Below are positions 8,264-26,507 of a stretch of 64,000 nt of DNA, one piece after another. This DNA comes from a virus (taxonomy: Duplodnaviria; Caudoviricetes), in IMG/VR virus record IMGVR_UViG_3300037400_002094, positions 1 through 64,000 of that record. One strand, written 5' to 3'. The notes beneath the pieces are model-generated. The model searched no databases. It worked only from the letters and a program-made list of their open reading frames with translations, and had not been told where the DNA came from. The translations under genes were made by a program, and so were the position numbers. Position 1 is the first letter of the stretch. Each line of letters starts with the position of its first letter.

Positions 8264-8459
8264 ATCTGTTTTCATAATAACGTTCATCAAAGTCGTCTGG
8301 TTCGTCACTTTCATCAGTACCGTCATTATAATCTGGGTGATTTGGATTCCAATCTTCTTCTCTCCACCACTCATGTCCACTTTCTCTTAGAATTTTGTTT
8401 ACTGATTCTTTCACGATTTTGTGAAGGTCACTTTCTGTAAGTCTTATAATCTTCTTCAT
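8262..8459 (-). CDS. Small acidic protein: leader motif plus short tail
   Basis: MKKIIRLTESDLHKIVKESVNKILRE followed by an acidic tail; late motif upstream. Confidence 0.8.
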   Translation of the reverse strand: MKKIIRLTESDLHKIVKESVNKILRESGHEWWREEDWNPNHPDYNDGTDESDEPDDFDERYYENR

Positions 8460-8481
8460 AATGTTTCTGTTTTTATATATA

Positions 8482-8514: not shown

Positions 8515-9852
8515 ATGTTAATACAACCAAAGCCATATATGGACAAGCTGAGGCTTCGTCGCCATGCTTACGGGACGGAGAGAAGGCGTAATATGTCGAA
8601 GCTAATCTTGGAGCAGGGAACGCCATTCCCAAAGCCAATAGAGTACTCCGACATAGACCAGGAAATGTTCAATTGGGTTGACAAGAAGTTTAACCTTGTC
8701 TATGACGGTGTGAGACTACCTACATACAAGCTGTATTCAACACAGAGGATAAGCGAGTACTCACAGACATGGAGTCAGACCGACGACTATGGAAATGTGA
8801 TAATGAATTTCAAGACCATTACACGTGAGAACAACCCACAGAAGGGTGAGAACCAGGGTAGCTACTTCAATATACCAGGTCACAAGGATTTCGCTATGTT
8901 CTATGTACCAGTATTACAGGAGAACGGTACTGAGGCTTATGACAAGTACACCATGAAGCAGCCGTTTACTGTCAATTTTATATATTCTGTATCAATTGTA
9001 ACGAATAAGATGGAGATACTGAATGAAATGAATGAGCTGATGCATTACGAATTTAATGCTATAACGGCTTATATTTCTCCTAATGGTCATCCAATGCCTC
9101 TTACCCTTGAAGACGTGTCAGACGAGTCAGAATACGCCATAGATGACCGTAAATACTACTCTCAGACATTCAAGATAAAGCTAAAGGGCTATATAATAAG
9201 GAGAGAGGACTATAAGGTTGAGAGAATACCTTCAAGACTTGTGATGACTTCACATGATTCTGACGCTACTGGCATAATCAACAGGAGGGGTAAGAACAGA
9301 AGAGAAGATGAGAAGGTTCACTTCGTAGAGGGCCTTGATGGAATGTTCACTGGAAACAAGATTGGGTTCTTGAAGAATGCATTAAAGAATGATGATGAGT
9401 GTGAAGTACCACCATTAAAGGATGTTACACCTCCACCACCAGAAATTCTTGAGGAGCTTGACGGTAACGATGAGTGTTGCCCACCACCAGACGACAGGTA
9501 CTTCTATAAGACCATGAAGGTAATCATGAATTTTGACGAATGTATACTTGAACTTACATTCAAGATTGATAAGGACATGGTGCTTGATTCAGTGGAGACA
9601 GAGAATGTATACGATTTCAAGATAATAGTCAACGGTGAGGTAATGAATCTTGACAATGGTATTACTTTCCTTAAGGATGATGAGATTACTGTAAGGATTT
9701 CAAGGGAGGACGAATTTGGCACGTCCAAATTGACTCTTGTTGGATACGACCCTCACACGAAGTTCGACAAGCTTGATGCACCAGAATCATCACTTGATGA
9801 GCCTTATTACAATGAGGAGATATTAATAGACCCATCAGACAGTGAAGAATAA
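8515..9852 (+). CDS. Putative virion protein (tail completion/terminator-like N-terminal half)
   Basis: 445 aa, late motif, upstream of the sheath gene; function inferred mainly from position. Confidence 0.5.
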   Translation: MLIQPKPYMDKLRLRRHAYGTERRRNMSKLILEQGTPFPKPIEYSDIDQEMFNWVDKKFNLVYDGVRLPTYKLYSTQRISEYSQTWSQTDDYGNVIMNFKTITRENNPQKGENQGSYFNIPGHKDFAMFYVPVLQENGTEAYDKYTMKQPFTVNFIYSVSIVTNKMEILNEMNELMHYEFNAITAYISPNGHPMPLTLEDVSDESEYAIDDRKYYSQTFKIKLKGYIIRREDYKVERIPSRLVMTSHDSDATGIINRRGKNRREDEKVHFVEGLDGMFTGNKIGFLKNALKNDDECEVPPLKDVTPPPPEILEELDGNDECCPPPDDRYFYKTMKVIMNFDECILELTFKIDKDMVLDSVETENVYDFKIIVNGEVMNLDNGITFLKDDEITVRISREDEFGTSKLTLVGYDPHTKFDKLDAPESSLDEPYYNEEILIDPSDSEE

Positions 9853-14947: not shown

Positions 14948-15607
14948 ATGCGTTATAATATGTACAAATATAAAAAAATTAGAACGGCAAAACTTAGAGG
15001 TGATAATGAAAAACGTTTTAATATAGATGATTATAAAAAAAACAAAGATAGCGAAAAAAACGAAAGTAGAGTCGTGAATAAGAAACTTATAAGACTAACA
15101 GAGTCTGACTTGCATAGAATCATAAAGGAGTCTGTACAGAGAATATTAAGTGAAGTGGAAGACAATTACCCAAGATTAAGTGTAGAGAAAAGTCGTCCTA
15201 GTGACTTACCTCCTGGAGACCAAGACATATACTATCCTGGTGATGTAAGTCCAGAGGTGCTAAATTCATTATCAAATGGTGATTTTGGTCAAGAAGCCAC
15301 ACAGCCTACATATAAAGAGGGTGACATTGTTTATTGGATATATGCATATAGCAGCGTTTTCCCTAACTTCTACAAGGTAGTTAAGGTAGGACCTAAGTCT
15401 ATATGGATTGCGAAAATGGGTAGTAAACGTGATAATGTAACTATGGGATACGGCAGCTGGACAGCAGTACCAGACGAAAGCAATGTTTCAGATAAGGTAA
15501 AGCGCATTGCTTTAAGACCAAACGGAAAGGCTTATATCAATTATGTTGGGCATAAACAGTCGTTAGAAGTTTGGAAAGGAAATCCAATAAACTGTACGTC
15601 TGACTAA
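14948..15607 (+). CDS. Leader-motif protein (start may be GTG 15074)
   Basis: KKLIRLTESDLHRIIKESVQRILSE, then a C-terminal SH3/KOW-like beta domain (YKEGDIVYW..FYKVVKVGPKSIWI). Confidence 0.75.
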   Translation: MRYNMYKYKKIRTAKLRGDNEKRFNIDDYKKNKDSEKNESRVVNKKLIRLTESDLHRIIKESVQRILSEVEDNYPRLSVEKSRPSDLPPGDQDIYYPGDVSPEVLNSLSNGDFGQEATQPTYKEGDIVYWIYAYSSVFPNFYKVVKVGPKSIWIAKMGSKRDNVTMGYGSWTAVPDESNVSDKVKRIALRPNGKAYINYVGHKQSLEVWKGNPINCTSD

Positions 15608-18987: not shown

Positions 18988-20295
18988 ATGGCAAACAAGA
19001 AGAAACTAACAGAAGAGCAGGAGAGCCAGATAAAGATTCTCCTTGCAAATAATGAAATGCTGGAGAAGACGAAGAAAGAAGCTAAGGAAAGGGGTAAGAA
19101 GATTGACCAGATTGTTCGTGCCCAGCAGGAGGTGGTTGACCACATCAATGCAATTGACCCATCAGCATTAGATAATCCTAAGCAGTACACTCCAAAGAAG
19201 GAAAAGAAAGTCAACAATGGTTTGTTTGATGATACAGACATGTCATTGTTCGACATTTTGAACGAGAGGGAGGCTGAAAGAGAAGTGGCAGCTCAGCAAG
19301 AGGCTGTTAAAGAGCAAAATATAGTTGAACAGAAGGAGAATAATTATGTCATAACCCCTAGTGATACTGTGATAAACACTGACTCCACTTTCAGTGACAG
19401 TAGTTCGAATGTTCAATACGATGTCATCCAGCTACCAAGTAACGGGCAGTGTTACAAGAGTAAGATTGAGAGAGTACCTGTTGCATATCTTACGGCTTAT
19501 GATGAGAATATCATTACTTCCCCTAACTTGTACAAGGATGGGCTTGTTATTGACTTCCTTCTTAAGAATAAAATTGTGAACAAGGAAATAAACCCAGACG
19601 ACCTTATAAGCGGCGACGTGGACGCAATCACATTGTTCTTGAGAGCAACCAGCTATGGTGCTGATTTCCCTATCGTGGTTACAGACCCAGACACAGGAGA
19701 GCAGATTGAGAGTATAGTTGACCTTACTACCCTTAAGCCTAGGGATTTTACGCTTATAGGCGATGAGAACGGATGGTTTGATTTCGAGACACCTGGAAGG
19801 AAGGATAAGATTAAGTTCAGATACCTTACCAGAAAGATGGAGAAACAACTACAGAAGGCTAACGAGATTGAGAACTATGGAACTAAGGCTTATATGCTTG
19901 ACATGGAGAGGGAAATCCTTGGTGCTTCACTGTTGAATGACAAGATTCTGAGTGAGAACGACAAGAAAACCATGAGAAACGCAATCGCTATAATGGGTAA
20001 TTGGTCTAAGAAGCTTAGAGAGACAAACCAGTCCAAATATAACAAGCTTGTAACCAATAGCTTACAGATGCAGATTATGTCAGTTAATGGTAATACTGAC
20101 AGGGATTACATAAGACAGTATATTGGTACAATGCCAGCTATGGATGCCTTGGCATTAAGAAAATATATAGAAAAGAACAGACCTGGAATTAATTTTGATA
20201 TCGAGGTGAAGAGACCAGAGAGCCTTGGAGGTGGCTCATTCAAAACCTTTCTTAACTGGGACGATTCTATTTTCCTCAATATACCCGACCTATGA
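18988..20295 (+). CDS. Baseplate hub/tail assembly chaperone (T4 gp26-like)
   Basis: LPSNGQCY, YLTAYDENII, GDVDAITLFLRATSYG, KFRYLT, RPGI.F pattern. Confidence 0.75.
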   Translation: MANKKKLTEEQESQIKILLANNEMLEKTKKEAKERGKKIDQIVRAQQEVVDHINAIDPSALDNPKQYTPKKEKKVNNGLFDDTDMSLFDILNEREAEREVAAQQEAVKEQNIVEQKENNYVITPSDTVINTDSTFSDSSSNVQYDVIQLPSNGQCYKSKIERVPVAYLTAYDENIITSPNLYKDGLVIDFLLKNKIVNKEINPDDLISGDVDAITLFLRATSYGADFPIVVTDPDTGEQIESIVDLTTLKPRDFTLIGDENGWFDFETPGRKDKIKFRYLTRKMEKQLQKANEIENYGTKAYMLDMEREILGASLLNDKILSENDKKTMRNAIAIMGNWSKKLRETNQSKYNKLVTNSLQMQIMSVNGNTDRDYIRQYIGTMPAMDALALRKYIEKNRPGINFDIEVKRPESLGGGSFKTFLNWDDSIFLNIPDL

Positions 20296-20518
20296 GCAGA
20301 ATCTTAAGGAGGAGCTATTCGCTTGTCACATGTTCTTAAAGATACCGTTTGACGTGCTTGATAGCATGCCTATACGTGACAGGAAATACTACATCCACAG
20401 ATACAACAAGTATATGGAGGAAAGAGAGGCTGCAATGAATAACACAAGCAGTTCGTCGGATATCAATATGTACACAAATATGAGCCAGGGAGTTACTGGC
20501 GATGAAGTATTTGAATAA
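20225..20518 (+). CDS. Small tail/baseplate assembly protein (gp51-like); start uncertain
   Basis: LDSMPIRDRKYYI motif; overlaps the previous gene in the +1 frame. Confidence 0.6.
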   Translation: MEVAHSKPFLTGTILFSSIYPTYEQNLKEELFACHMFLKIPFDVLDSMPIRDRKYYIHRYNKYMEEREAAMNNTSSSSDINMYTNMSQGVTGDEVFE

Positions 20519-20525
20519 AAAAAAA

Positions 20526-22367
20526 GGGAACGATATACTTATTGACACAAGCCGTCCCTTTTGAATAAATATAAATAAATCTGCAAGACATAACAAATCT
20601 TGCAGATTTTTTTGTAGTGGCACACACACACAACAAAGCAGCATAAGAAAAGGATAGTCCTCATTTGAACTATCCCTTTGTTATTTACTGTTATTACTGT
20701 TCTACCTTTGTCCAATTATACTTTCCTAAGTAGAAATTACCTGTACCCATCCATACATCATAACCACTACTTCCTTGAGGTACTGTTAATGTACCATCTC
20801 TCTTAATGTCTTGGAATGTAGTACTACTTATCGTAGGCGCTGTCATAGCGTTTGATGTAATACTACTAAGTCTAGAACAATAAGTGAAAGCATATTTACC
20901 AATGCTTGTAACACTATCTGGTATATCTATACTTGTAAGTCTTTTACAACCATTGAAAGCACTCTCACCAATACTTGTAACACCACTTGGGATGTTAAAC
21001 ACGCCATCTGTATCACTATTTATTCTTGTAAGACTAGAACATTCATAGAAAGCAGCACCAACAATACTTGTAACACCACTACCTATAGTGCAACTTGTAA
21101 GACCACTACATCTATAGAAAGCATCATTGCCAATACTTGTAACACCACTACCTATAGTACAACTTGCAAGACCACTACAATATCGGAAAGCACATGAACC
21201 AATACTTGTAACACTATCTGGAATATCTATGCTACTGAGACTAGTACAACTTTGGAAAACATAACCACCAATAGTTGTAACACCACTACCAATTGTACAA
21301 CTACTAAGGCCACTACAATATTGGAAAGCATTATTACCAATACTTGTAACACTATCTGGTATATCTATACTTGTAAGGCCACTACAATGAGTGAAAGCAC
21401 TTCCACCAATACTTGTAACTCCATTTCCTATAGTACAGCTTGTAAGACCAGTACAATAAGTGAAAGCACTAACACCAATACTTGTAACACTATTTGGTAT
21501 ATCTATACTACTAAGACTAGTACAGCCACTGAAAGCACTCTCACCAATACTTGTAACACCACTACCTATAGTACAACTTGTAAGACCACTACAACTATAG
21601 AAAGCATATTGGGAAATACTTGTAACACTATTAGGTGTTACTATACTTGTAAGACTATAACAACCTCCGAAAGCAGCATTACCAATACTTGTAACACCAC
21701 TTGGTATATCTATACTTGTAAGACCACTACAACCATTGAAAGCACTATTACCAATACTTGTAACACTATTTGGTATAACTATACTTGTAAGACTATAGCA
21801 ATCTCGGAAAGCACTATTACCAATACTTGTAACACTATCTGGTATAGCTATACTTGTAAGACCACTACAACCATAGAAAGCATAATAACTAATACTTGTT
21901 GGGTCTGTCAATGTATACTTAACTATATGCTCACCAAGAGTATCAAAGGTATATGCTGATACAACACTTGACTGTACAGCACCATCAATCTCAATTGCAC
22001 TGAAACCACTTGTATACTTATTATATCCAATCCTTGTTGGATTGATTGTATCTGTTACGTTGTACTTTGCCACAACCCTTGTTTCGATTGGTTCAACATA
22101 AGGATTATAATGCACATCCCCTTCAGTTGTACAGATTGATACATTAGGTAGTATTGCTCCACTACCGTTAATGTATTGTTCGTACTCAGAGTGAGTACTG
22201 AATTTCTTTAAATAAAGTGCCATAATTGTTATATTATTATTAAAGTTATCATATAGTAATAAATATTTGTAGGGAAATAAAAAATGAGGAACTGTACTAG
22301 AACAATCCCTCATCTTTTGCATGTTTATGTAAGAACGTTATTTTGTGTCAACAAGTATATCGTTCCC
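20526..22367. mobile_element. Non-autonomous IS-derived cassette (MIC-like) carrying an LRR gene
   Basis: 25-bp IRs GGGAACGATATACTT(A/G)TTGACACAA at 20526-20550 and 22367-22343 (one mismatch); A9 flanks at 20517-20525 and 22368-22376; no transposase inside. Confidence 0.8.
20694..22223 (-). CDS. BspA/TpLRR-type leucine-rich repeat protein
   Basis: About 15 repeats of 23 aa (C.GLTSI.IP.SVTSIG..AF). Start reassigned to MALYLKKF (ATG 22223), downstream of TATTTAT at 22265-22259. Confidence 0.93.
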   Translation of the reverse strand: MALYLKKFSTHSEYEQYINGSGAILPNVSICTTEGDVHYNPYVEPIETRVVAKYNVTDTINPTRIGYNKYTSGFSAIEIDGAVQSSVVSAYTFDTLGEHIVKYTLTDPTSISYYAFYGCSGLTSIAIPDSVTSIGNSAFRDCYSLTSIVIPNSVTSIGNSAFNGCSGLTSIDIPSGVTSIGNAAFGGCYSLTSIVTPNSVTSISQYAFYSCSGLTSCTIGSGVTSIGESAFSGCTSLSSIDIPNSVTSIGVSAFTYCTGLTSCTIGNGVTSIGGSAFTHCSGLTSIDIPDSVTSIGNNAFQYCSGLSSCTIGSGVTTIGGYVFQSCTSLSSIDIPDSVTSIGSCAFRYCSGLASCTIGSGVTSIGNDAFYRCSGLTSCTIGSGVTSIVGAAFYECSSLTRINSDTDGVFNIPSGVTSIGESAFNGCKRLTSIDIPDSVTSIGKYAFTYCSRLSSITSNAMTAPTISSTTFQDIKRDGTLTVPQGSSGYDVWMGTGNFYLGKYNWTKVEQ

Positions 22368-22374
22368 AAAAAAA

Positions 22375-22404
22375 AATGCATCAAGGGTTTACTTGGTGCA
22401 TTAA
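22375..22404. terminator. Terminator hairpin whose A/U tract is the insertion target
   Basis: AATGCATCAAG-ggttta-CTTGGTGCATT preceded by an A run. Confidence 0.65.
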
Positions 22405-23021
22405 CTATTTAATTGAGTTCCTATATCGTTTAATGTTACAAAGCATTGGTCTAAGATTTGAACTACTGACTGAGGTGTCGTATTCCTTACCGTCATATAG
22501 CTGTTGTAATACGCTCTTTCTTGACCAATCAGTTCCCTAAGTGATGTCGCTGTGTTTATGTTTGTAGGCTGCTGTATCCTGCGGCCATTATTGCCACCTC
22601 CAATAAACATATCATTTATTCCAAGCCAGTCCTTGGTATTGTAATAGCCATTTACTGCGGCGTTCCATACGCCGTTAAGTGGCGGGACGTTAAGACCAGC
22701 GTTTCTTGCAATATTCAACAGCGTTGAGTTAGGATAATACCTTCTTCCTCCACCATACATCCATCTGGTTATATTGTTGACACCGTTCTGCTGTTGCTGT
22801 TGTTGCTGGGTTTGTTGGTTTCCTGGCTCAATCCTGCCTTCGTTTATAGCCAACGCAACATTATTACAGTACTCATTGAACGAATTTGCGAACGTGTAGA
22901 CATCACCAGTCAACGTTATGTTACCGTTTCTTAATTGGTCAATCGTTGCCGTTAGTCTTGTTGCGTATTGTCTGAGTATTGTGTTGTCAATAGCTTCCGT
23001 TATTATCTGTCTCAAATTCAT
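22401..23021 (-). CDS. N/Q-rich late protein with leader-like N-terminus
   Basis: MNLRQIITEAIDN; poly-Q stretch; TATTTAT at 23048-23042. Confidence 0.75.
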   Translation of the reverse strand: MNLRQIITEAIDNTILRQYATRLTATIDQLRNGNITLTGDVYTFANSFNEYCNNVALAINEGRIEPGNQQTQQQQQQQNGVNNITRWMYGGGRRYYPNSTLLNIARNAGLNVPPLNGVWNAAVNGYYNTKDWLGINDMFIGGGNNGRRIQQPTNINTATSLRELIGQERAYYNSYMTVRNTTPQSVVQILDQCFVTLNDIGTQLNS

Positions 23022-23057
23022 AATCTATCGTTATATTTACAATAAATATCACGATGA

Positions 23058-23471
23058 TTAGAATAATTTGGCGAAGAAGTATTTTATGGCAGAAGTCCCT
23101 TTACACCGTGTATATTCGTTCATGTTTATTTTTTCGGTGATATTCAGTCTGTACTGCTCATTGAGTCTACTAGCCTCAGACTTGAAAGCCTTTCCGTGTC
23201 TTAGCTTCATATCTCTCCCAGTGTATGCAAGATAGTAATGCAGCATTTCGTGTACGAGTATGTTCTTGAGCTGCTCAGTTGTATACTCGTAGTTCCCACT
23301 TATCTTTATGACAGGGTTCTGGATATATCCATTACCCATTTCACACTCGAAGTAACCGAAGTACTTAAAGCTATCCATCAGTTCAAACTGTGGCTTTGGT
23401 AGTACGCCGTTGAAATAAGCCAGGTTGTAGTTACAGAACTTATTCGTGATTTCGGATAAGCAAATTCTCAT
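23058..23471 (-). CDS. SprT-like zinc metalloprotease
   Basis: N..YF.G.LP, LVHEMLHY, HGKAFK. Confidence 0.9.
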   Translation of the reverse strand: MRICLSEITNKFCNYNLAYFNGVLPKPQFELMDSFKYFGYFECEMGNGYIQNPVIKISGNYEYTTEQLKNILVHEMLHYYLAYTGRDMKLRHGKAFKSEASRLNEQYRLNITEKINMNEYTRCKGTSAIKYFFAKLF

Positions 23472-23608
23472 AGGTATTTTTCAATTAAATAGTAAATAAC
23501 ATAGCCAGCAAGGGCGTAGGCTAGTATTCTACCGAGTACAAACCATAGCCAAGCTCTCAGCGTTCTAAATTCCCAGGTGATACCCCACACTTCTTGAAAT
23601 AGTCTCAT
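23468..23608 (-). CDS. 46-aa membrane peptide
   Basis: Not in ORF track. MRLFQEVWGITWEFRTLRAWLWFVLGRILAYALAGYVIYYLIEKYL; ATGA overlap with the SprT gene; promoter box at 23642-23635. Confidence 0.65.
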   Translation of the reverse strand: MRLFQEVWGITWEFRTLRAWLWFVLGRILAYALAGYVIYYLIEKYL

Positions 23609-23720
23609 TTTTCTATCAATTTTAAATTACGGTGCAAAGTTAGGTAAATTATTTGGAATAACAAAACATATTACGTTAAAAAAAATTAAAAAGGTGTATT
23701 TATAGTAAAATTAGTAAATA

Positions 23721-26507
23721 ATGAATTTTCTGAAAGGTTTTCTAGGGCAGATAATTAGTCTCATAGGAGGTGGTGCTGGAGGTGCTCTCCAGCTTGTGAC
23801 AAATTTGTTAGCCAGTGGCATGAAAATGGTGCTGGACTATCAAAATACTGCCTTTGCATTTTCAAGACAGATTGGTGCTTCGTCTCAGCAAGCTGCCAGT
23901 TACACTAAGGTTTTAACCGAGAGGGCTAAAGACCTTGGCATTAAATATGGTATTGCTGCTGATGCCGTTATGAAGCTTGAGCAAAACCTTGCTCGTGCAA
24001 CTGGAAGAGCCTTGATTATGACCAAGACAGAGGCTGATGTAGGTGTTGCGCTGTCAAAACTTGTAGGTGAACAGACATATGTCAATATCCAGGAACAGAT
24101 AAACGGCATGGGTGGACAGATTTCAACCATGAATGGTGCAGTTGCCAAGGCATATGCTACTGCTGTTAAGTCTGGTCTTGATGCCGTTAAGTACAGTGAC
24201 AAGTTTGCAAAGAACCTTTCAATGATGAACAGGTTTAACCTTAGAAATGGCGTTGATGATATAGCTAAGATGACGGCTTTGTCTGAGAAGCTTAGTATAA
24301 ACCTTGCATCAATAGAGCCAGGGTTAAACAAGTTCTTCAACATAGGAGATGCTATAGAGAATGCCGCTAAGCTGACGATGCTTGGTGGACCTTTCGGAGC
24401 ATTCGGAGGCAACCCTCTTGATATGGCATATGAGGCTAACTATGACCAGGCAGCATTCATGGATAGGACTACCAAGATGCTTAAGGGACTTGCTGTATTC
24501 GATGAGGTAAAGGGAATGTCAAACCTTATTGGTGGTGCTATGGACTATATACAACAGTTCTCCCAGATTATGGGTATGAGTGTTGAGGAAACCACCAAGA
24601 TGACAAAGAAACTTGCTGAGACTGGATATAAGGAGGAGAAACTTTCACCTTGGATTAACAATAGCCAATATGACAGCATTCGTGACCTCATTATTAACAG
24701 GTCACAGGTTAGAAACGGACAGGTCTTCTACACTGGTTCTAACGGCAAGAGCACAAATATCACAGAAGGTATAGAGGGTATTCCTAAAGAGGAGAGGGAT
24801 ATGCTTGAGAGGCTGGCAAATGGAGCTGATGAGAATATCGTAAGACAGGAGGCGCAGGTTAATTCACTTATTGACACAATCAATGGTGCTGTGACGACTG
24901 TTACTGCTCAGATAGCTGAAGTATTGGCAGAGCCTATGGAGAAATTCCATGAGTGGATTAGGGAACATATACCTACCATAACAGAAAAGATAGGTGATAT
25001 GGTCAATACAGCTAAGAACTTTATAGCCAAATTCTCCAAAGATTATAGCATACTTAAAACAGCCATAATCGGATATATAGGATTCATGCTGGCTAAGAGC
25101 CTGTTTAGGGGTATATTATCACCTGGAGGAAGTGCTGCTATGGGCACTGCTGCGAGGGGAGTATCAGCCGCTGGAAGTGCTATAAAGGGTGGCTGGAGTA
25201 ATATGAAATCATTCTTTAAGTATGTTGCAGAAGGCTTCAAGACAGCAAGAGCTAGTGGCGATGGATTCTTTAAATCCATACTCATGGGCTTTAAGAAGCC
25301 TATTAAATATAGTGGAGAATGGTGGAGACCTAATTCTGTCGGTGGATACACAAGAGTAGGAAACCAGGATGCTGCTTCTGGTGCTATGAGATTTGGTCGT
25401 GGAATTGAATCTCCGTTTAGGGCTATTAGACGTGGTGCTAGTGCAATCAAGAATGGTTGGAAGAGTATGGGAATGCTCAACAAGATTGGCATGGGTGTTG
25501 GTGTTGCGGCTAGTGCAATCGAAGGAATAGCTGCTTACAGTAACTATAAGAACAAGGTTAACGAAATAAACAACTCTGACATGTCAGATACCGAAAAGGC
25601 TAGGGCACTTGACGAAGCAAGGGTTGGAAGAAACAGTGAAATTGGTGGTGCTGTAGGTACTGCTGTAGGTTCAGTTGTAGGAGCATTCTTCGGACCGATT
25701 GGTATGTTTATAGGGCCTGTTGTTGGAAAATTCATAGGAAGCTTCATTGGTAAATATTGGGACCCGTTTGTTAATGGTATTAAGAGTGTATTCTCAGCTA
25801 TTGGTGATGGATTCAGTAGTGTTTGGAAATTCATAAAAAAGTGTCTACAGTATCTTATTGACTATAACCCACTTGGTTTATTGGTTAAGGGTATTGGAAA
25901 ACTATTTGGAAAGGATTGGTCTATTACAGGTGCTTTCAGTGGAATGTTTGGAGGTAGTAAGGGTGCTGAAACTCATCATAGAGGTGGTGGCATCGGAGGT
26001 GATGAAACCTTGTCTCCTGCTGGACAATTTATTGCTAGGGTTATGAATGACGATTCTAACAACGTAGGTTTTAGTGACTTTGTTGCAAGACCTATGGCAA
26101 ACAATGAAGTTCCTGTTATAGGACAGGTTGGAGAGCTTACGGTAAATGAAAAACAACAGGATAAACTTGCATCATCAATAGTATCAAAACCAGTTGGAGG
26201 TAGAACGTACATCTATACCCCTCAGAATGTAAATGGCATGAACGCCAGGGAGGTTAGATTCAGTGATATAAACCTTAATGTAAACGGTACGTTCAAACTA
26301 GAACTTAACGGTTCTACACAGAATGTTGACGTTAGGGATATACTTAGCAAGCTTGCAGATGACCCTATTGTTAAGGCTAGAATAGCAGACATAGCAAGAG
26401 AAGTATTCCAGTCAGACAACTTACAGGGTAGGGTCATGTACGACACATCATATTTGGGTGGTCTGCCATCAGCAGCTTCTACTCTTGGAAGAATGGATAT
26501 TTCATAA
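23721..26507 (+). CDS. Tape measure protein
   Basis: 928 aa, Ala/Gly-rich helical, glycine-zipper hydrophobic segments, heads the baseplate operon. Confidence 0.8.
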   Translation: MNFLKGFLGQIISLIGGGAGGALQLVTNLLASGMKMVLDYQNTAFAFSRQIGASSQQAASYTKVLTERAKDLGIKYGIAADAVMKLEQNLARATGRALIMTKTEADVGVALSKLVGEQTYVNIQEQINGMGGQISTMNGAVAKAYATAVKSGLDAVKYSDKFAKNLSMMNRFNLRNGVDDIAKMTALSEKLSINLASIEPGLNKFFNIGDAIENAAKLTMLGGPFGAFGGNPLDMAYEANYDQAAFMDRTTKMLKGLAVFDEVKGMSNLIGGAMDYIQQFSQIMGMSVEETTKMTKKLAETGYKEEKLSPWINNSQYDSIRDLIINRSQVRNGQVFYTGSNGKSTNITEGIEGIPKEERDMLERLANGADENIVRQEAQVNSLIDTINGAVTTVTAQIAEVLAEPMEKFHEWIREHIPTITEKIGDMVNTAKNFIAKFSKDYSILKTAIIGYIGFMLAKSLFRGILSPGGSAAMGTAARGVSAAGSAIKGGWSNMKSFFKYVAEGFKTARASGDGFFKSILMGFKKPIKYSGEWWRPNSVGGYTRVGNQDAASGAMRFGRGIESPFRAIRRGASAIKNGWKSMGMLNKIGMGVGVAASAIEGIAAYSNYKNKVNEINNSDMSDTEKARALDEARVGRNSEIGGAVGTAVGSVVGAFFGPIGMFIGPVVGKFIGSFIGKYWDPFVNGIKSVFSAIGDGFSSVWKFIKKCLQYLIDYNPLGLLVKGIGKLFGKDWSITGAFSGMFGGSKGAETHHRGGGIGGDETLSPAGQFIARVMNDDSNNVGFSDFVARPMANNEVPVIGQVGELTVNEKQQDKLASSIVSKPVGGRTYIYTPQNVNGMNAREVRFSDINLNVNGTFKLELNGSTQNVDVRDILSKLADDPIVKARIADIAREVFQSDNLQGRVMYDTSYLGGLPSAASTLGRMDIS

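Follow-up and report, generated by a model that had tools for sequence, protein, structure and literature searches.

The 64,000-nt window analysed here, which is the first 64 kb of a single virus record in IMG/VR (IMGVR_UViG_3300037400_002094, 93,892 nt in total), contains at positions 20526-22367 a cassette in which the ends of an insertion sequence (IS) bracket one intact gene for a BspA-type leucine-rich repeat (LRR) protein, with no transposase gene between the inverted repeats. Comparison with full-length relatives makes it very likely that this cassette is a non-autonomous derivative of an IS1595-family cargo transposon, produced by transposition and internal deletion. The element is of a kind that is already known, namely IS1595 cargo transposons and derivatives resembling mobile insertion cassettes (MICs). 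A preliminary description, made from the letters of the window, had proposed a transposase-less cassette with IS1595-type ends, and the full-length relatives support this proposal. The parts of the cassette and its borders are as follows.

20517-20525, no strand: left A9 run, consisting of one copy of the target-site duplication and the end of a TAA stop codon (read directly)
20526-20550, plus: left terminal inverted repeat, the tip of end A; its 13-nt tip is identical at all three ends in the contig
20551-20616, plus: subterminal part of end A, with a two-way terminator hairpin at 20577-20609 and then T7 (-18.4 kcal/mol, z -5.1; terminator scan)
20617-20646, plus: remnant of the transposase gene (tnp), its last ~30 nt including the TAA stop codon, matching the tnp 3' end of L176/v257, tggtacacacgtaataacgtggcataa
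20648-20680, minus: terminator hairpin, here the terminator of the passenger (-17.8 kcal/mol, z -4.3; 88% identical to the L176 stretch)
20694-22223, minus: passenger gene, 509 aa (Pfam LRR_5, PF13306, E 5.5e-108; start set by relatives)
22258-22268, minus: promoter-like motif AAATATTTAT, about 36 nt before the passenger ATG
22279-22318, minus: inward-facing terminator hairpin in end B, then T6 (-20.5 kcal/mol, z -5.9)
22343-22367, minus: right terminal inverted repeat, the tip of end B, which pairs with the left repeat
22368-22376, no strand: right A9 run, the second copy of the target duplication (read directly; fold of 22368-22410)
22375-22402, no strand: the phage's own two-way terminator hairpin between convergent genes (-15.2 kcal/mol, z -6.4)

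The 25-nt inverted repeats match at 24 of 25 positions, with one mismatch, and a comparable match was found in none of 100 dinucleotide-preserving shuffles. These repeats, the A9 direct repeats on both sides, and a single passenger with its own terminator had all been named in the preliminary description, and all are present in the sequence; the passenger is the LRR_5 gene, and its terminator hairpin follows directly after the stop codon. The first two A's of the left A9 run belong to the TAA stop codon of the open reading frame (ORF) at 20225-20518, and the right run doubles as the T-tract of the terminator for the minus-strand gene at 22401-23021. The inward hairpin of end B is conserved in L176, L178, and L110, and would stop transcripts coming in from outside.

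Relatives were found by scanning with the 19-nt tip. Besides many chance hits, the scan returned a clear family, whose members come from IMG/VR contigs and from genomes of Prevotella, Prevotellaceae, and Bacteroidales, many of these from ruminants. A complete member consists of end A, a transposase of 339-340 aa, a shared terminator, one or more mostly convergent passengers, and an end of type B or C. End A includes the inverted repeat, a terminator hairpin, and a TAnnTTTG-type promoter ahead of the transposase. For the family assignment, two transposases were scanned (L110 and L111). Both contain DDE_Tnp_IS1595 (PF12762, E 1e-44 to 1e-46) and Zn_ribbon_IS1595 (PF12760), and they score 200-204 bits against NCBIfam NF033547, which has a cut-off of 75; the DDE transposase with an N-terminal zinc ribbon by which IS1595 is recognised is present in these relatives. 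The 25-nt inverted repeats of most relatives match at 24-25 of 25 positions. A perfect 8-bp target duplication flanks 15 of the 21 distinct complete elements (including L176, L028, L110, L083, L111, L029, L100/107, L161, L004, L005, L023, L030, and L063), and two more have a near-perfect one. All but two of the perfect duplications are A/T-only, and terminator-hairpin tails account for about four of the ten target sites that were reconstructed.

Full elements that carry both a transposase and a passenger with the N-terminal module described below are L176, L186, L110, L083, L153, L161, L169, and L172. L176, in a related jumbo phage, is 2465 bp long and has a passenger 65% identical to that of the window, and L186 is a second full element in related jumbo phages. 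Elements on metagenome contigs (L153, L161, L169, and L172) encode transposases 95-98% identical to that of L176, and L110 and L083 are full elements in bacterial genomes. The transposase ORF of L186 / L012+L018 (IMGVR_UViG_3300028805_000088) is cut to 282 aa by a frame break, with a recognisable 3' part, and evidently represents an early stage of transposase decay. The phage-internal system envisaged in the preliminary description is not upheld: the same family is found in Prevotella/Prevotellaceae chromosomes (L083, which lies between ordinary-looking ORFs, L151, and L169).

The 13-19-nt tip is itself common to a wider group of Bacteroidales IS elements. As a separate observation, at least 12 contigs of JAUNOO01 (Bacteroidales) have the same 19-nt tip followed by a different subterminal sequence, in most cases no more than about 200 nt from a contig end (L038, L040, L059, L060, L070, L074, L084, L086, L088, L096, L104, and L109). 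This tip appears to belong to a multi-copy sister IS that fragments that assembly.

The loss of the transposase can be read against L176. The window cassette is co-linear with it over positions 1-91, a segment that matches end A of the full-length relatives in an alignment of A ends, and again from the last 30 nt of tnp onward, with the deletion junction at 20616/20617. Therefore, an internal deletion of ~1.1 kb removed the transposase and its promoter. The same hairpin follows the tnp 3' end in both the window cassette and the L176/v257 element, and the counterpart of this hairpin in full elements serves the convergent transposase and passenger jointly. Other transposase-less copies (L028, L029, L154, and L004) have remnants of other lengths, and L016 has another junction; on account of these different junctions, the transposase losses are regarded as independent. 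A series of decay stages is also visible, which includes the one-ended copy L016 and genes without recognisable ends that keep either the inner end-B sequence (L177, L179 at 94%, and L181) or the tnp 3' remnant (L180 and L185).

The insertion site offers a second line of evidence. When the element and one repeat copy are subtracted, the junction reads ...GAATAA-A-run-TGCATCAAGG..CTTGGTGCA. The clean stop codon and terminator expected at this point in the preliminary description occur in the same arrangement in the closest relative, L116, where TAA and seven A's are followed by a homologous hairpin (...GAATAAAAAAAAATAATGCACTAAGG..CTTAGTGCATTTTTT). In more than 20 relatives, the homologue of ORF 20225-20518 (p97) lies ~1.1 kb from the homologue of the SprT-like gene, which equals the spacing in the window minus the cassette. 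No LRR gene is present between these two homologues in any of them, and their junctions consist of a stop codon, an A-rich run, and a terminator hairpin. Empty-site alleles and other repeat-bounded cassettes had been listed as checks; unoccupied sites with hairpins homologous to 22375-22402 were found in L116-L120 and L134, and other such cassettes were found with other passengers.

These comparisons support insertion by transposition into the A-tract of a terminator, which broke no gene. The neighbouring genes are undisturbed, since the element brings a terminator in each of its ends and duplication of the A/T tract gives the phage terminator its tail back. On the left, the two-way hairpin of end A with its T7 can terminate the upstream phage gene, and on the right the minus-strand neighbour regains a phage terminator with a T-tail. 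The relative G002 is empty at this site (L120) and holds the sister cassette L028 between the homologues of ORF 8515 and its 111-aa neighbour, and the type-C cassette L029, on a third contig, lies upstream of the ORF 8515 homologue. Therefore, the family has entered no fewer than three intergenic sites of the structural region in these phages.

The parent type is an element with end A, a DDE transposase of 339-340 aa, a shared terminator, a convergent passenger, and an end B that contains the promoter-like motif, the inward terminator, and the inverted repeat. The target of its transposition was an A-only octamer, which lies between the ORF 20225-20518 stop codon and the two-way terminator hairpin and was duplicated. 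Either before or after arrival at the site, an internal deletion took out the transposase promoter together with the transposase gene except for its last 30 nt, sparing both ends, both element-borne terminators, and the LRR passenger. Such copies would follow a one-way path from an active transposon to a transposase-less cassette and finally to a fixed phage gene without ends.

A second element of the family is resident at the start of the contig.

1-684, minus: resident element of the IS1595 family, truncated by the contig start (103-2, transposase N-terminus; 660-684, tip of end A)

A variant of the inverted repeat upstream of a transposase had been reported at position 684, and the 13-nt tip is indeed present on the minus strand (672-684), at a distance of 581 bp from the transposase start. 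Positions 1-263 are 93% identical at the nucleotide level to IS copies in Prevotella genomes (L111 and L107), which provides a host link, and the first 34 residues of the transposase are identical to those of L111. The resident IS evidently belongs to the L111/RUG12758 clade, which is sister to the clade of end-B elements; the transposases of the two clades are 78-79% identical. The claim that the cassette shares its ends with the phage's own IS is only partly sustained. It stands for the 13-nt tip and for end A, where 46 of 57 aligned positions agree (~80% over the first 55 nt); the 25-nt ends match those of the cassette at 20-21 of 25 positions. The cassette derives from the sister lineage (e.g. 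L176, with the order end A, transposase, LRR gene, end B), and not from the resident IS. The contig breaks inside the resident IS, as would be expected of a repeated element, and breaks of phage assemblies at elements of this type are thereby explained.

Within the resident IS, the stretch 264-633 is an extra 370 bp in end A that is missing from every other copy; L111, L107, and L003 run straight from 263 to 633. The last ~60 nt of this stretch resemble the hairpin at 710-766, which lies outside the IS and downstream of the PolB gene, and the stretch may be a phage terminator-promoter module that was recombined into the IS. A search of 1-900 against Rfam gave only sub-threshold chance hits.

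The passenger ORF was listed as 20694-22322, and alignment with relatives indicates that the true start is almost certainly the ATG at 22223. The protein scores 356 bits against PF13306 (gathering score 27.7) in four stretches. It is composed of a 42-residue N-terminal module, a beta-sandwich at about residues 48-110, and about 14 BspA-type LRRs of 23 residues, which appear in the DNA as a 69-nt period over 20856-21925. We infer that it functions in binding; the virion adhesin or receptor-binding role proposed in the preliminary description is putative. Its N-terminus as read shows no evident signal peptide or lipoprotein signal.

The 42-residue module begins 30 distinct passengers in the fetched loci, with the consensus M..YLKKF.TH.EY.AYI..S..ILPNVS.CTTEG.VHYNP and 11 invariant positions. 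After the module and a short linker, unrelated domains follow, such as the LRR type with the beta-sandwich, FISUMP, Big_2, and others. The end-A and transposase arm of L176 is about 90-91% identical to that of L172 or L169, as is the arm with the N-terminal module and end B, and the sequence between the arms is unrelated; therefore, two conserved arms have served for the exchange of cargo by recombination. The module is present once in each of the two bacterial genomes with such an IS, as the passenger of the IS itself, and it was found in none of 200 other genomes of the same bacterial family. In viral contigs, it occurs inside elements and in tip-less genes that keep the inner end-B sequence or the transposase remnant.

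The module had no match in Pfam, PHROG, or NCBIfam. An AlphaFold2 (AF2) model of residues 1-145 has a mean predicted local distance difference test (pLDDT) score of 79, the module itself reaching only 60-73, and contains a strand, a helix, and a hairpin in the module, followed by a confident beta-sandwich. Foldseek searches with this model retrieved nothing at E <= 0.001 from PDB and BFVD, and no usable hit from the ESM Atlas. A role as a docking or targeting tag is possible for the module.

A different leader, similar to IRLTESDLHKIVKES, starts the passengers of type-C and small cassettes (L005 585-1486, L030 6534-7090, L111, and L100/L107). The same leader is found on two window genes, at about 8382-8462 (minus) and 15062-15160 (plus), and thus seems to be a second phage-type N-terminal module carried by this IS family. 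L186 has two passengers, one with each kind of leader. A further cargo type was seen in L023 449-1798 (IMGVR_UViG_3300028886_000029), which has IS1595-type inverted repeats (22/25) and a perfect 8-bp duplication, TAAATAAT; the same end is present in L022. Its cargo is a 375-aa TnpB-type gene (OrfB_IS605, Cas12f1-like TNB, and HTH_OrfB), that is, a gene of the RNA-guided-nuclease family in an IS1595-type cassette.

The motif upstream of the passenger, to which the preliminary description had drawn attention, was confirmed as AAATATTTAT. The motif [AT]ATATTTAT is enriched in the 93.9-kb contig (17 copies vs 6.2 +/- 2.2 expected), and about nine copies lie 20-60 nt before ORF starts, including those of the conserved 445-aa ORF at 8515 and the tail-sheath gene. 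The motif occupies the same place in end B of L176, L178, and L110, and in L083, on a bacterial chromosome, a TAnnTTTG box stands in its place. The passenger is probably expressed from the element's own motif together with the phage structural genes.

Several facts weigh against the derivation of the cassette from an IS1595 cargo transposon. The cassette contains no transposase and the contig holds only 34 residues of the resident one, so the family assignment rests on relatives. The A9 repeats are homopolymers, at which a duplication of 8 nt and one of 9 nt read alike, A9 being compatible with 8. Moreover, four to six complete relatives are without a clean duplication (L186/L167, L153, L169, and L172), possibly as a result of recombination between copies or chimeric assembly. 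An origin of the LRR gene by homologous or illegitimate recombination, with the inverted repeats being incidental, would draw on the cargo exchange by recombination that does occur in this family (L176 vs L172 and L169). It is nevertheless very improbable, as the segment begins and ends exactly at the tips of the inverted repeats, is flanked by a duplicated, octamer-compatible A-run, and is missing from the same site in relatives. The bracketing of a single surface-type gene by inverted repeats could also suggest an invertible segment, in which a site-specific invertase acts on the 25-nt repeats to flip the LRR gene. This is scarcely credible. In full-length relatives, these repeats form the termini of IS1595-family elements that encode a DDE transposase, and direct target duplications flank them. 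Inversion would switch nothing, because the promoter-like motif and the terminator are both inside the segment. Furthermore, no recombinase domain was detected in the ORFs tested between 16.9 and 26.5 kb, and relatives lack the whole segment instead of holding it inverted.

A more serious question is whether the cassette is now an active MIC that shuttles late-expressed binding-protein genes between safe sites, with the resident IS (or a host copy) supplying the transposase in trans. With both ends intact (24/25), movement by a compatible transposase in trans is possible in principle, and the duplication is perfect. The resident IS has the same 13-nt tip and the end-A similarity given above; the 13-19-nt tip says little alone, because it is a trait of the wider Bacteroidales IS group. 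In viral contigs, complete transposase-less cassettes with duplications (the window, L028, L029, L004, L005, L023, and L030) outnumber complete transposase-bearing ones (L176, L186, and L014). L030 (557 bp) and L005 have no transposase remnant, and such small cassettes look built for mobilisation in trans. On the other side, the resident transposase belongs to the sister clade, with the divergent 25-nt ends noted above, every cassette with the N-terminal module has its own deletion junction, and the family is not confined to phages. The junction pattern of the window was found nowhere else in IMG/VR (metagenome contigs were not scanned for the junction itself), and the junctions of the sister cassettes L028 and L004 each occur only once there. 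Among 5.8 billion proteins no near-identical passenger was found, the best match being 68% identical and LRR-dominated. Exact-protein look-ups of the passenger gave no second copy, and the contexts of P0084 are not IS-bounded. Two 706-bp elements in one genome (L053 and L063) were considered as a repeated non-autonomous copy and rejected; they say little about recent mobilisation in trans, because they are only about 80% alike. Present activity in trans is on this evidence doubtful. Repeated decay accounts for the data no less well than mobilisation in trans does, and the one-way path fits them better than renewed movement would.

In a broader reading, this IS1595 lineage has become adapted to jumbo phages and serves as their carrier of virion-associated binding modules; it would hop between Prevotella chromosomes and phages, and its transposase-less copies would still be moved in trans. 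Part of this adaptation would be the fixed 42-residue module, followed by LRR, FISUMP, or Ig-like domains that can be exchanged, all behind a promoter of phage structural genes. We consider this reading unlikely; if it were true, transposition would be a route by which jumbo phages change what they bind.

Three known systems come closest to the cassette. IS1595 insertion sequences with passenger genes ('transporter IS') were reportedly described by Siguier, Gagnevin and Chandler in 2009. The relatives of the cassette resemble them in the DDE transposase with a zinc ribbon, the terminal inverted repeats, the 8-bp duplications, and the extra genes. They differ in that the window copy has no transposase, that the cargo here is of phage type (a fixed 42-residue module with swappable C-terminal domains and a phage structural-gene motif upstream), and that many copies of the family reside in jumbo phage genomes. 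Among the MICs, MIC231, which derives from IS231 in the Bacillus cereus group, is multi-copy and is reported to be moved in trans by the IS231 transposase. Like MIC231, the window cassette has IS ends that bracket a non-transposase gene and no transposase of its own; unlike MIC231, it is known as one copy at a single site, and its transposase remnant shows recent descent by deletion. The passenger shares about 14 repeats of a 23-residue unit with the BspA-type LRR surface proteins of Bacteroidota, and differs from them in its N-terminal module, which was seen only on the cargo of this family and in related phage genes. Full-text literature searches retrieved, from the collection searched, no paper on an IS1595 cargo family in jumbo or crAss-like phages.

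Insertion sequences are generally regarded as uncommon in lytic phage genomes and as harmful for the most part. The present case is one of a whole family that inserts into terminator tails, has a terminator of its own in either end, and introduces genes for putative binding proteins, and all stages from an active transposon to a fixed phage gene are visible in related genomes. This offers a concrete, testable route by which giant rumen phages may gain surface-binding domains from transposons that they have in common with their Prevotella hosts. The practical value is modest, and the mechanism is the known one for IS1595 cargo elements.

The record itself is a fragment of a jumbo phage with a contractile tail and covers roughly one quarter of a genome of about 410 kb: related phages rated complete measure 409-413 kb, and for contigs of this lineage that are 89-110 kb long the completeness rating is 24-33%. 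Its genes include those for a tail sheath of 1176 aa, a tape-measure protein, a baseplate-hub-like protein, PolB, NrdD, and a UvsX-like recombinase. Identity as a crAss-like phage was rejected on account of the tail sheath, tape measure, and baseplate hub, together with the ~410-kb size of complete relatives. Megablast of 19000-24000 against GenBank phages gave no match. To the left of the cassette, ORFs 18988-20295 and 20225-20518 are in different frames and overlap by 71 nt. More than 20 related phages conserve both the full 97-aa frame of the latter and the overlap, and this overlap beside the baseplate-hub-like gene is possibly a programmed frameshift or a nested gene.

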